The position numbers and the translations under genes were made by a program. The notes under the pieces are model-generated. The model worked only from the letters and a program-made list of their open reading frames with translations. It was not told where the DNA came from and ran no database searches. Source: Thermofilaceae archaeon (GTDB taxonomy: Archaea > Thermoproteota > Thermoprotei > Thermofilales > Thermofilaceae). Taken from it: DNA of 64,000 bases. This document shows, one piece after another, positions 32,073-55,223 of this stretch (position 1 is its first letter; each line of letters opens with the position of its first letter). Location: positions 96,001 to 160,000 of the forward strand of contig JAWCCZ010000004.1 of assembly GCA_038861545.1 (NCBI GenBank), in the 5' to 3' direction.

Positions 32073-32930
32073 TCAGGGGTCGATGGGCAAAACATTAGCG
32101 TCTATACACACCTTGTAAACACGCGGTGCGTACTCTGATACCTTTCGTGCGCCATGGATTATTACTCGCATGCCGCGTAGTGCTGCTTCATGCTCGAGTA
32201 GGAAGTAAGCCTCTGTGAAGAGGTCGTTTTCAGGAGCCCAGTAGTAGAAGTGTACCATACCGCCCTCTGGCTTAAGGCACTGGAATGCACAGTCAAGGTA
32301 CTCGTAAGCGCCTTTCGGAAGCGGCATAACAACCCTATCGCAGCATTTATACCAGCAGCTTGCTTTTAAGCGGACGTCGCCAAGCACTGGTATAACCTTA
32401 TCCTCCAGCTTATTGAGCCTGACATTCTCCTGCATGTACCTAAAGGCCTCTGGATTGAGCTCTATCGCCACAACTTTCTCCACCAGGGGTTGTTTCCTAG
32501 CGATCATTAAGGCATAGGGTCCAACACCCGCGAACATCACCATTACGAGCTCACCTGGCTTTACCTGTTTGGATATTCTAAGCCTCTCTGTCGCCTCCCT
32601 TGGAGAAAAGTACACCTTAGTTATGTCCAGCTTTAACTTCACCCCGTGCTCTACGTGTATAACTTCTGTGCCCCCCTCGCCAGCGATTACCTCATATTCC
32701 CTTAACCTAAAAGCTCCCTCCCTGCCCGAGGTTTTGGCTAAAACAAGTTTTACATTTCTATGAAGTTTCATTAATGTTTCCCCAACTATTCTCTTGACTG
32801 TTTCAGGTGCCTCAGGGGAAAACTCAACCACGGCGATAGCCCTTTCTCTCGATCCTATAATATCGAAGCTCGATGGCACGTACTTAACGTCTTCGCATAA
32901 AGTTTCAGCTAGGATTCTTTTCAAACTCAT
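32073..32930 (-). CDS. trm5: Trm5-family tRNA (m1G37) methyltransferase
   Basis: FDIIG, HVEHG..KVYFSPR..ERLR, MFAGVGPYAL, ELNPEA, RVVMPLP. Confidence 0.85.
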   Translation of the reverse strand: MSLKRILAETLCEDVKYVPSSFDIIGSRERAIAVVEFSPEAPETVKRIVGETLMKLHRNVKLVLAKTSGREGAFRLREYEVIAGEGGTEVIHVEHGVKLKLDITKVYFSPREATERLRISKQVKPGELVMVMFAGVGPYALMIARKQPLVEKVVAIELNPEAFRYMQENVRLNKLEDKVIPVLGDVRLKASCWYKCCDRVVMPLPKGAYEYLDCAFQCLKPEGGMVHFYYWAPENDLFTEAYFLLEHEAALRGMRVIIHGARKVSEYAPRVYKVCIDANVLPIDP

Positions 32931-32981: not shown

Positions 32982-34247
32982 ATGAAAACGTCACGTATAC
33001 CCAGTTTCTATAAACTGAGTATTGATGAGCGTTTGAAGGCTGTCGCGGAGTTCGCGGGGCTTACAGGCGAGGAAATTCAGCTTTTAAAACAATTCGGTAA
33101 TCTTGATTCCAGCATTGCCGATAGGATGATCGAGAACGTGATAGGAGCAATGAGCTACCCGCTAGCTGTTGCTGTGAACTTCTTGATCAACGGTAAGGAC
33201 TACGTCGTCCCGATGGTTATAGAGGAAGCTAGCGTAGTGGCAGCGGCAAGTAATGCGGCTCGTTTAATGCGCAGGGATCAAGGGATTAAATCCATGGCTA
33301 CAGCACCCGTAATGATTGGACAGATTCAGGTCATTGGTTTGAAGGATCCCTGGTACAAGCGCATGGAGGTTCTCGAGCGCAAAGATGAAATTATACAGAA
33401 AGCGAATGAAGCGGACCCTGTTCTAGTGAAGTACGGTGGTGGAGCTCGTGATGTTGAAGCAAGAGTTGCTGAAGGCCCTACCGGTCCGATGCTTATCGTG
33501 CATTTACTAGTTGACGTGTGCGACGCAATGGGGGCAAATGCGGTTAACACTATGGCGGAAAGGGTGACTCCACTAATTGAGGGAATCACCGGGGGTAAAG
33601 CTCATCTTAGGATTATTTCCAATTTGGCTGATCGAAGACTTGTGCGTTCTTGGGTCAAGGTTTACAAGGAGGACCTTGGTGGTGAAAACATTGTCGATGC
33701 AATAGTCGATGCATGGGCTTTTGCTGCAGCCGACCCGTACCGCGCAGCAACGCATAACAAGGGCATAATGAACGGCGTGATAGCGGTGGCGTTAGCTACC
33801 GCTCAAGATCACAGAGCGATCGAGGCGGGGGCACATGCCTATGCAGCTAGAACCGGAAAGTACTTGCCGCTCACTGTTTGGGAAAGGGACCCGGAGGGTA
33901 ACCTGGTTGGCTCTCTTGAGATGCCAATGGCTGTAGGTATAATAGGGGGCGCAACCAAGGTACACCCGGTAGCCAGAATAGCTTTAAAGATTCTCGGAGT
34001 AAAAACAGCCAACGAACTCGCTGAAGTTATGGGAGCTGTTGGCTTAGCGCAGAACTTCGCAGCTCTTCGAGCGCTGGCGACTGAAGGTATTCAGAGAGGA
34101 CACATGGAGCTGCATGCACGTAACCTAGCTATAATGGCTGGCGCTACTGGAGAACTAGTCGACAAAATCGCTGAAGCTATGGTTAAAGAGGGGAACATTC
34201 GTTTCGATAGGGCTAAGGAACTCCTAGAGGAATTCTCTAAAAAGTGA
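32982..34247 (+). CDS. mvaA: HMG-CoA reductase, class II
   Basis: MIENVIG, EEASVVAA, DAMGANAVNT, RAATHNKGIMNG, EGIQRGHM. Confidence 0.95.
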   Translation: MKTSRIPSFYKLSIDERLKAVAEFAGLTGEEIQLLKQFGNLDSSIADRMIENVIGAMSYPLAVAVNFLINGKDYVVPMVIEEASVVAAASNAARLMRRDQGIKSMATAPVMIGQIQVIGLKDPWYKRMEVLERKDEIIQKANEADPVLVKYGGGARDVEARVAEGPTGPMLIVHLLVDVCDAMGANAVNTMAERVTPLIEGITGGKAHLRIISNLADRRLVRSWVKVYKEDLGGENIVDAIVDAWAFAAADPYRAATHNKGIMNGVIAVALATAQDHRAIEAGAHAYAARTGKYLPLTVWERDPEGNLVGSLEMPMAVGIIGGATKVHPVARIALKILGVKTANELAEVMGAVGLAQNFAALRALATEGIQRGHMELHARNLAIMAGATGELVDKIAEAMVKEGNIRFDRAKELLEEFSKK

Positions 34248-34294
34248 GCAGTCAAAAACTTAAACCGGCTTGGGTGAGAGGAGGGGGGCGAGGG

Positions 34295-35765
34295 ATGAGC
34301 TTTCCCTAAGGAGGAAAAAGGTTACGAGCTAGGTATTACTGCAGGCAAGCGAGAGGATTTTTCAGAATGGTTCACACAGGTGTTAACAAAGGCTGAGTTA
34401 GTTGATACGAGGTACGGGGTTCAAGGTTTCGTCGTTCATAAACCTTGGGCGATGCGAATCATACGTGAAATATATCGAATGTTTGAAGAAGAGCTTGAAA
34501 AAAGCGGCCACGAGCCAGTCCTCTTTCCACTTCTTATACCAGAGGAATATTTTGAGAGAGAGAAAGAGCATGTTAAAGGATTTAAACCCGAGGTTTTCTG
34601 GGTTACCGAGGGGGGCGATGAAAAGCTTGAACGTAGGCTCGCATTGAGACCTACCTCAGAAACGGCTTTTTACTCGATGTACTCTCTTTGGATACAAGGC
34701 TGGAGAGACTTACCGTTGAAGTTGTACCAGAGCGTATGCGTTTATAGGTACGAGAAAACCACTAGGCCTTTCATAAGGGGTAGAGAATTTCTATGGATCG
34801 AGGCTCACTGCGCTTTCGCGACTCGAGACGAAGCCTTAAATCAAGTAAAAGAGGATATGGAAAACCTGAGGAAAGTTGTGTGGGATAGGCTTGCTATACC
34901 GTTCATTTTCCTAAGGAGACCACCTTGGGATAAATTTGCCGGTGCTGAAGATACTTACGCGGCTGATACTCTCATGCCGGATGGCAGGGTACTGCAGATA
35001 GCGTCTACGCATGATCTGGGTAAGCGATTCTCTGAGGCTTTTAACATAGCTTTCGTAGATAAAGACGGTCAGTGGAAGCAAGTGTACCAGACCTGCTACG
35101 GTCCCGGCGTTTGGAGGATAATAGCGGCCTTAATAGCTATACACGGCGACAACAAAGGATTGGTACTACCGTTCGATGTAGCCCCGGTGCAGGTAGTAAT
35201 AATCCCCATATTCTACAGCGATGATGAGAAGGAGAAAGTGGTAACCAAGTGCAGGTTAACTAGAGAAAAACTAGCTGGAGCCGGTTACAGGGTGCTGGTT
35301 GACTTTAGAGAAAAAACCCCTGGCTGGAAATTCAATGATTGGGAGCTTAAAGGTGTACCTCTCAGGATTGAGATTGGTAAAAAAGAAGTTGAAAGCGGCT
35401 CTTTAACCGTGTTCCGAAGAGATATTCGAAAAAGGGTGCCCGTTAAAGAGGAAGAGCTTCTCCAGAAGATAGAAGAACTAAGGTATTTGATCCTAGAAGA
35501 ATTAAAGAAAAGAGCTAGAGAATTCTTTAACTCTAGGATAGTCAATACAACAGATAGAGAGAACCTGCTTCGAGCTGTAAGGAACGGTATGGTTGCAGTA
35601 GCTCCGTTCTGCGGGCGAGAAGAATGCGCTGAGGACATGAGGACTCAGGTGGAGGGTCTTAGAGTCAGAGGTACCGAGCTAGACCATGTAGAGGGAGATT
35701 ACGGAAAATGTATCTGGTGCGGCTCTCCAGCTAGGCAGCAGGTTTACATTGCCAGAGCATACTAA
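34295..35765 (+). CDS. proS: Prolyl-tRNA synthetase (archaeal/eukaryotic type); 5' end requires +1 frameshift or has a 1-nt error
   Basis: LRPTSET, RYE..PFIRGREFLWIEAH, QTCYG, WELKGVPLRIEIG, C-terminal ARAY. Conserved GITAGKREDFSEWF lies upstream of the called GTG (34380) and is reached from ATG 34295 only by a +1 shift. Confidence 0.93.
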
Positions 35766-55000: not shown

Positions 55001-55223
55001 TGAACCTAATTATCGCATCCTTTAGTATCTTATTCCACAGAGTCCCCACATGGGGGGTATCCGATGAGGGATAAGGTGGACCATCAAGGAAGTAGAAAAC
55101 CGGCTTATCTTTCGAGTTCTCCCTAATTTTTTCATAAATTCGTTCCTTCCTCCAGAATTCAAGTATCCTGGGTTCAAATTCCTTTGGCTTATACTCTTGA
55201 CTAAGTGGTCTTACGCAATCCAT
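52041..55223 (-). CDS. ileS: Isoleucyl-tRNA synthetase
   Basis: DGPPY..HVGT, WTTTPWTLP, GTGLVH, DWVISRQRYWG, EMHKSLGN. Confidence 0.97.
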   Translation of the reverse strand: MDCVRPLSQEYKPKEFEPRILEFWRKERIYEKIRENSKDKPVFYFLDGPPYPSSDTPHVGTLWNKILKDAIIRFKRARGYSVVDRPGYDCHGLPIEVKVEQELGFTSKKDIESFGVDKFVQRCRDFALRNASSMTRHFEEFGVSMAWNDPYLTLSSSYVQSAWWLIKRAEEEGLLERGVKVVHWCPRCETTLADYEVTEYRDLTDPSIYVKFPVKNNPGRYLLVWTTTPWTLPANVAIMANPNLRYVWVDVNGDILLLSRSRLEEVMGEAGVGYYRVVSEVEGKDLKDLEYLHPLADEVKVQEKLEPYHKVVLSEAYVSGEEGTGLVHCAPGHGEEDFQVGLEYGLPVTVPVNEKGIFTEDAGKYAGKTVREANGAIISDLRGKGMIFHEGEVTHRYPVCWRCKTPLVLRAVPQWYIRVSHMKEKFLQEAAKVKWVPEWAGYARFKNWLEGLRDWVISRQRYWGTPAPIWVCSSCSHKIIVGSLAELELLTGKKLDLKDLHRPWVDSIEFSCPRCGGIARRVEDVLDVWLDSGISFYASLGYPLEEVELRLADIIVEGHDQIAGWFFSLLRCGIIAFGHTPYKTVLMHGFALDEKGKEMHKSLGNYVSPQQVLEYEKSCRDAFRWYVLKNMVWEDLKFSWRSLAEVYDDLNIAWNTFVFATTYMGLDRYNPIEHPLEKYGGILRVEDKWLLSKVERLTRDVTEWIENYELHRAARALRDFIVEDVSRWYVRLTRPRVWVEENNINKLTAYAVLHYALRKFLILLAPFTPFFAEEVYRQSFRQSKDPESIHMLPWPESKLELINDELEKRMDLARRIVERAVAARMKAGVKLRMPLPTLYMLTEDPSLITTLKEMEAVISSQANVRKVETLPLSQRQQFFRVKAIPVYRVLGPVFKTESQKVIKLIEKLDPYRLKQRLKSEGRIALISEDGATYEVTSEMINFEETLLEGFAAEDMNGNLIILDTRMGAEERAEGLARDVLRRIQFMRKLMRLPVDEYINVTIYAPYEALEMLESRKSFIATEARISQLTLVEYEYLVQGELVQDWEVEEFTVKVGIKRSV

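Follow-up and report, generated by a model that had tools for sequence, protein, structure and literature searches.

In Escherichia coli, the phenylalanyl-tRNA synthetase genes are controlled by the pheM-pheST leader-peptide attenuator, in which a tiny upstream open reading frame (ORF) with the cognate codon senses the charged tRNA. To our knowledge, it is largely unexplained how archaeal cells adjust synthetase levels to tRNA charging, and we know of neither T-boxes nor classical attenuators that would account for it. A different type of control is found at the prfB frameshift site, where the slippery codon is CTT, with TTT as the exception, and a Shine-Dalgarno (SD)-like hexamer is located 3 nt upstream (PMC12421855). 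Slow decoding in the A site drives +1 shifts also elsewhere, with the Ty1 site CUU-AGG-C reaching about 40% (PMC5009743). Few archaeal cases have been described: a 2021 review of archaeal recoding gives one tested case, fucA1 (-1) (PMC8211752), to which a 2016 review adds chlD (-1) and the halovirus HSTV-2 (+1) (PMC5009743). A published synthetase gated by a frameshift was not found in the literature that we searched, the coverage of which is incomplete.

The prolyl-tRNA synthetase gene (proS, encoding ProRS) of a Thermofilaceae archaeon has a 5' end that can be compared with these systems. The window, i.e., the whole stretch of DNA that was analysed, comprises 64,000 nt, and positions below refer to it and to its forward strand unless indicated otherwise. 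Positions 34295-34309 read ATG AGC TTT CCC TAA, which is a mini-ORF in frame 0 encoding M-S-F-P-stop (M-S/G/C-L-P-x-(x)-stop in relatives), and its ATG is found 47 nt past the stop codon of hmgA. Relative to this ATG, the ProRS frame is shifted by +1. It is closed by TGA 34296-34298, is open from 34299 to the stop codon at 35763-35765, and has as its first ATG, GTG or TTG a GTG at 34380-34382, which is residue 28 of the open frame. The predicted coding frame after a +1 shift extends from 34305 to 35765, with a computed product of 489 amino acids and an N-terminus MSFPKEEKGYELG. The open frame belongs to the archaeal/eukaryote-like ProRS family, as it matches TIGR00408 with 531 bits (curated cut-off 437), beginning at residue 15. 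No second proS was found in the source genome, which is 92% complete and has Thermofilaceae MAGs as its closest named relatives. The sequence-only reading that preceded this work had described the closing TGA, the open frame from about 34299, the first start at GTG 34380, and an ATG about 30 nt past a CTTAAA reading M-S-F-P-stop, and all of this agrees with the DNA.

The CTTAAA at 34259-34264, 30 nt upstream of ATG 34295, is part of a putative archaeal BRE and TATA-like promoter in the hmgA-proS gap (34253-34266). A similar TTAAA-containing element is located 30-36 nt upstream of the ATG in the motif-bearing relatives described below. An SD-like tract (34279-34288, with a G at -10 in 19 of 20 motif regions) gives ATG 34295 a calculated duplex energy with the 3' end of the genome's own 16S rRNA of -10.6 kcal/mol vs -2.9 kcal/mol for GTG 34380. 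An estimate based on the TATA-like element positions the transcription start 5-12 nt upstream of ATG 34295, and the SD-like tract may lie upstream of this predicted start.

An unusual start of this kind could be due to a single extra T or C from sequencing or assembly, as had been proposed earlier as the simpler alternative. Logan contigs of X1, which is probably the source run, and of X5 (covering 33749-34817) and X7 (34147-34412), both from a second study, showed 0 differences and 0 gaps to the window; contigs were compared, so rare variants are invisible. Because the contigs from the probable source and from the second study agree, a consensus indel error is excluded, and the conservation of the site in 20 distinct 5' regions also refutes it. 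Gene callers place the start at GTG 34380, but this is most likely an internal Val codon, since it is GTG, GTA, GTC or GTT in motif-bearing relatives and its use as start would cut off the FSEW segment that is matched by TIGR00408 and by all homologues in the PDB. Alignments to ProRS homologues in the PDB begin at open-frame residues 7-20, i.e., upstream of GTG 34380. An assembly indel or a true start at GTG 34380 is thus extremely unlikely. The annotated products from gene callers are scattered, with lengths of 443-475 amino acids vs about 482-488 in other relatives, and a +1 start, if true, accounts for public ProRS annotations being 10-40 residues short. No in-frame start is conserved: many motif regions have none before the conserved Trp, and in one (L063) the first canonical start is 22 codons past it.

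Three other ways to produce the protein were considered and rejected. Read-through of TGA 34296 would need a start upstream in frame, of which there is none, and three relatives that have TGG or TGT at this position keep the ATG motif. For transcriptional slippage, a long homopolymer is absent, and relatives read CCTTCC. An archaeal bulge-helix-bulge intron that would restore the frame was not found in the 20 sequences, using a strict motif with G-U pairs allowed.

To describe the conservation of the site, relatives were gathered from related genomes, metagenomes and protein-encoding contigs. The motif GGG ATG NGC YTT CCN, with a stop 0-2 codons on, was found ahead of proS in 20 distinct 5' regions. 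These are from three Thermofilaceae genera, g1 (the source genome G000 and G001), g9 (five genomes) and g7 (G007), and from metagenomes. The 14-letter pattern occurs once genome-wide, which argues against a chance match. Invariant positions are -3 to +2, +4, +5 and +7 to +10. The second codon is AGC, GGC or TGC, varying between A, G and T at its first base, the third is CTT (18 of 20) or TTT (2 of 20), and the fourth is CCT (16), CCC (2) or CCG (2), varying at base 3 only. The sequence-only reading had proposed to look for a conserved out-of-frame start with a CCC-stop; the out-of-frame start is conserved in all 20 regions, and the CCC-stop arrangement is found in two.

The frame relation is conserved as well. 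Distances from the ATG to the Trp codon are 70, 73, 76, 79 or 82 nt in the 20 regions, all 1 mod 3, i.e., all linker indels preserve the +1 relation of the ATG to the ProRS frame. No stop occurs in the ProRS frame past the motif in any of the 20, whereas in the ATG frame a stop is reached at codon 5-7 each time. For 13 linkers of equal length, the ratio of synonymous to non-synonymous pair differences (pairs are not independent) was 125:106 in the ProRS frame vs 73:201 and 34:218 in the other frames. For the E-L-G segment it was 107:36 in the ProRS frame, again with non-independent pairs. Judged by these ratios, the stretch from the motif to the conserved core changes in the manner of a protein-coding sequence in the ProRS frame. 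The AR of the mini-ORF stop is preceded by T irrespective of whether the overlying codon is Ser, Ala, Gly, Asn or Pro. The motif sequences are kin, with about four independent lineages and few independent events, i.e., about three indels in the linker and two changes at wobble positions. Direct observations are the layout and how it is conserved, the frame relation, and the linker's coding signature. The earlier proposal that proS may need a +1 shift from ATG 34295 gains from finding the layout kept in 20 distinct 5' regions. The site is real and conserved, and we consider it highly probable that it is a recoding site.

To localize the slip, +1 re-pairing was examined for every mini-ORF codon in 17 sequences. 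Only codon 3 can pair at all three positions in all of them, with UUU re-pairing to UUC and CUU to UUC with one G-U pair. This identifies 34301-34304 as the predicted +1 slippery site, of which TTCC is invariant in 20 of 20 regions, and the tRNAs needed for the slip are all present in the genome. In the earlier proposal, the +1 shift would occur on the Pro codon while the stop occupies the A site (CCC to CCU), and the m1G37 status of tRNA-Pro would tune it. Such a shift agrees with the good re-pairing of CCC-UAA in G000 and G001 and with G37 being present in the three tRNA-Pro, tRNA-Leu(GAG) and tRNA-Phe(GAA). Listeria phage PSA has a +1 site made up of a Pro codon and a stop (PMC5009743), and in E. 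coli prolylation is impaired when m1G37 is lost (PMC8643618). However, the mini-ORF stop (34307-34309) directly follows the Pro codon in this genus only. CCC directly before the stop occurs in 2 of 20 regions; the remaining 18 have CCT or CCG as Pro codon, which re-pair poorly in +1, and a stop 1-2 codons further. Among the 17 sequences, the Pro codon fully re-pairs in +1 only in this genus, and in L006 with a wobble in the middle. A slip at the Pro codon is therefore improbable as the general mechanism; it would at most be an added route in this genus, where the CCC-stop site may contribute locally. The tRNA-Pro(GGG) gene of the source genome (G000:C1:192127, + strand) has an intron and is miscalled by ARAGORN as tRNA-Ser; many tRNAs of this genome carry introns and are miscalled.

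The Pro codon itself (34304-34306) is a putative sensor codon. Whereas the slip needs only the first C past YTT, the second C is invariant too and the third base varies between C, T and G, which is what selection for keeping a Pro codon would produce. A likely explanation for these features, based on the layout, is that this Thermofilaceae branch uses a programmed +1 shift at codon 3 to express proS, and that this shift senses charged tRNA-Pro. Ribosomes would initiate at ATG 34295 and read two further codons, which would bring tRNA-Phe (in relatives tRNA-Leu with anticodon GAG) to the P site on YUU and the Pro codon to the A site. With ample Pro-tRNA, the Pro codon would be read, and termination 0-2 codons on would release a peptide of 4-6 residues. 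With scarce Pro-tRNA, ribosomes would pause, and the P-site tRNA would re-pair on UUC and enter the ProRS frame, so that more enzyme is made. This would be a negative feedback akin to that of RF2, with charged tRNA as the signal. The sequence-only reading had suggested that ProRS synthesis could be under feedback by tRNA-Pro or m1G37 status, and feedback via tRNA-Pro is the most likely purpose of the layout. For this genus, the codon that directly follows the shift is also Pro (CCU), and CCC-UAA would offer a second slip to the same protein; the feedback may therefore be flatter here.

The Pro codon could also be incidental, with a constitutive YUU-C shift at a fixed ratio setting the ProRS level. 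The Pro codon that is present in both frames after the slip in this genus fits such a shift, as does the frequency of Pro codons in the genome (usage of CCT 0.31, CCC 0.21 and CCG 0.22, with three tRNA-Pro genes). An incidental codon does not explain why the second C is invariant though unneeded for the slip, with the third base varying, nor why the leaders of other synthetase genes bear their own cognate codons, and we regard a constitutive shift as rather improbable. Since Pro codons are common in the genome, the basal efficiency of a Pro-sensing shift must come from another source.

The GGG preceding the ATG is present at -3 to -1 in 20 of 20 motif regions and precedes just 5 of 182 other SD-led ATG genes of the genome, which indicates that it is separately constrained. 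Together with the start codon it forms GGGATG (34292-34297), invariant in 20 of 20 and located 3 nt upstream of the slippery codon. This hexamer could make 5 of 6 pairs with the anti-SD, and other registers give -4.6 to -8.5 kcal/mol; it overlaps the start codon. We infer from the sequence that initiation occurs at ATG 34295, that the ribosome slips, that the slip depends on Pro-tRNA, and that pairing of GGGAUG with 16S rRNA would stimulate it. What speaks against the codon-3 model is that there are few precedents for SD stimulation so close to the start, at the third codon. A weak hairpin is an alternative reason for the GGG constraint. The conserved letters could form an RNA hairpin in which GGA and UCC close a 7-nt loop, or a protein-binding site, with the ATG being incidental; such a fold is predicted in several sequences and one A-U/C-G change is seen. 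The calculated stability is about -0.5 to -0.7 kcal/mol at 75 °C, though, with competing folds being common, and the element has no Pro anticodon in its loop and supplies no start codon. This makes a hairpin or protein site very unlikely as the function of the motif, and a hairpin could coexist with the shift as a modulator. An anticodon-loop mimic was rejected for the same lack of a Pro anticodon in the loop, and a K-turn fits few g9 sequences by eye and is not conserved.

The proposed site shares several features with prfB (RF2). In both, an essential translation gene is interrupted near its 5' end, a P-site CUU (rarely UUU) can re-pair in +1, a purine-rich hexamer, which in proS is a candidate internal SD, is located 3 nt upstream, and the product relieves the pause, which is a prediction for proS (PMC12421855). 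The slippery YUU-Y is CTT-C in 18 and TTT-C in 2 of 20 regions. In contrast to prfB, which has UGA in the A site and a release factor as the signal, proS has a sense Pro codon and aminoacyl-tRNA as the signal. Instead of an RF2-specific stop in a release-factor gene there is a CCN codon in a ProRS gene. Furthermore, the proS site is at codon 3, its hexamer includes the start codon, and the host is an archaeon. The proS site thus probably operates in the manner of prfB without belonging to the prfB type. The Ty1, ABP140 and EST3 sites (CUU-AGG-C, CUU-AGU-U) also combine a P-site CUU with a slow sense codon in the A site (PMC5009743), as proS would. In these, the tRNA is constitutively rare and no synthetase feedback is known, whereas the proS codon is cognate to the product and common, as judged by codon usage and tRNA gene count. 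Listeria phage PSA has CCC followed by a stop, as in G000 and G001 (PMC5009743), but this is absent in 18 of 20 relatives, and the PSA shift makes a C-terminal extension and gates no enzyme.

With pheM-pheST, the proS element shares a tiny ORF bearing the cognate codon. It differs in having a single such codon and mostly no separate start, and in that the mini-ORF provides the N-terminus of the enzyme. A bacterial-type scan found no terminator-like site downstream of the leader, and a conserved downstream start is present only in g7. Like fucA1, chlD and HSTV-2, proS would be a case of archaeal frameshift-dependent expression. The reviews of these contain no chromosomal +1 case and no autoregulatory archaeal case (PMC8211752, PMC5009743). 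If the proposal is correct, the literature searched has no earlier archaeal frameshift that is either chromosomal and +1 or autoregulatory, nor an earlier synthetase that is gated by a hungry codon for its own amino acid. A switch of 15 nt close to the start would be a minimal solution to the matching of synthetase and tRNA charging in archaea, and it is small enough for a direct test in archaeal cell-free systems.

The distribution of the motif gives some insight into its history. In ProRS trees, the motif-bearing sequences form one group, or one group plus a motif-less member near g7, corresponding to 1-2 changes; L088 was omitted from the second tree because of an assembly break downstream. 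Other Thermofilales examined have ordinary in-frame proS starts, typically MSELG. Nothing consistent was found when 27 non-motif Thermofilales were inspected for Pro-codon mini-ORFs ahead of proS, and the YTT-CCN motif was not seen among those examined of 40 further genomes of the same class. In g9, the ancestral S-E-L-G is retained and the Met ahead of it is replaced, whereas in g7 the motif coexists with an in-frame GTG that is led by an SD. This suggests that the leader arose first and became obligatory once the old start was lost. The +1 shift is not obligatory in g7, due to this GTG, nor in L057, due to an in-frame ATG. In L057, the motif has GGC as codon 2, and the in-frame ATG, a possible second start, is two codons past the slip site. 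A second, divergent ProRS with about 38% identity is present in G003 (L051, G003:C97).

The GTG of g7 also agrees with a mini-ORF that acts as a Pro-sensing leader peptide, with ProRS begun separately by re-initiation or at an in-frame non-AUG codon (AUH at -11, CUG past the motif, GUG in g7). Conserved SD-led ATT/TTT starts at leuS and at the proS genes of f14, and the valS and ileS leaders that precede ordinary starts (all described below), point in the same direction. On the other hand, no near-cognate codon is kept: other sequences have CTC, CTA, CCT, CGA or CGG in place of the CTG, and L360 has GTT in place of the Ile codon. The SD ahead of ATT 34335 is weak (-3.8), and both the E-L-G segment and the linker upstream of it are under selection in the ProRS frame, with linker indels keeping the +1 relation. 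A separate start is unlikely on these grounds; we do not rate it lower because leuS and the f14 proS genes suggest unusual initiation.

A Trm5-family methyltransferase gene (32073-32930, - strand), the genome's only homologue, with Trm5b as best match but below the curated cut-off, is located near proS, and the sequence-only reading had cited its position two genes upstream in support of m1G37 control. The gene is near proS in all motif genomes checked. However, the same pgm-trm5-hmgA-proS order is present in L369 (also L361/L362), which has an ordinary in-frame ATG and no motif. The synteny is therefore not evidence for the switch, and it does not favor a Pro-stop slip either; the co-occurrence of trm5 and motif, although matched, represents one clade and is broken by L369. 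L369 groups weakly with g7 (82/89) and possibly represents loss of the motif or a pre-motif state. In E. coli, tRNA-Pro lacking m1G37 is poorly charged (PMC8643618), and by analogy an m1G37 input to the proS switch is plausible. The gene between trm5 and proS (32982-34247) encodes a class II HMG-CoA reductase of the degradative type (TIGR00532); an HMG-CoA reductase gene is found at this position in g1 and g7, not in g9.

Conserved 5' elements with their own cognate codon are also present at ileS, valS and leuS of Thermofilales, which appears to support the reading of the Pro codon as a sensor. The ileS leader (window 55299-55264, - strand; loci L292-L321), ahead of the ileS ATG at 55223, consists of GGTGA, 5 nt and ATT ATC, and reads V-N-D-I-I-P... 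from its GTG. The IleRS frame is +1 and open from the leader in 8 of 8 g1, g7 and g9 genomes, and elsewhere in Thermofilales either the same SD with ATT ATY or an M-x-R-Q-I-stop mini-ORF is found. Upstream of valS (L322-L351; G000:C4 near 203870, - strand) there is an SD-led mini-ORF M-P-E-V-(x)-stop, which is M-H-R-G-V here, with GTA as Val codon. The ValRS frame is -1 to the mini-ORF and open in 9 of 10 close relatives and in frame in G019, and several have a T-rich tract 30-45 nt downstream of the mini-ORF.

For leuS (L410-L439; G000:C6 near 26140, - strand), the element is an SD with (A/T) TTG CTA/CTC across Thermofilales, including Thermofilum pendens (G014). The TTG start and Leu codon are one base off the LeuRS frame (-1), which reads ATT/TTT GCT, and about eight genomes are without a canonical in-frame start nearby. 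This would require either a -1 slip at the start codon or initiation at AUU/UUU. That proS (+1, obligatory in two genera) and the parallel leuS, ileS and valS elements form an undescribed archaeal class, in which synthetase genes of Thermofilales sense their own charged tRNA by a frame switch at an early cognate codon, is a proposal to which we give about even chances. In family f14, which is of the same class as the source organism, proS (L383, L386, L390, L392, L394-L403) has a conserved SD with ATT GCC A/G in the ProRS frame. Read out of frame, the same letters give TTG followed by a Pro codon (TTG-CCR), and five of these genes are without a canonical in-frame start. The arrangement resembles the leuS design with the codon switched to Pro, and non-standard initiation may occur in this class.
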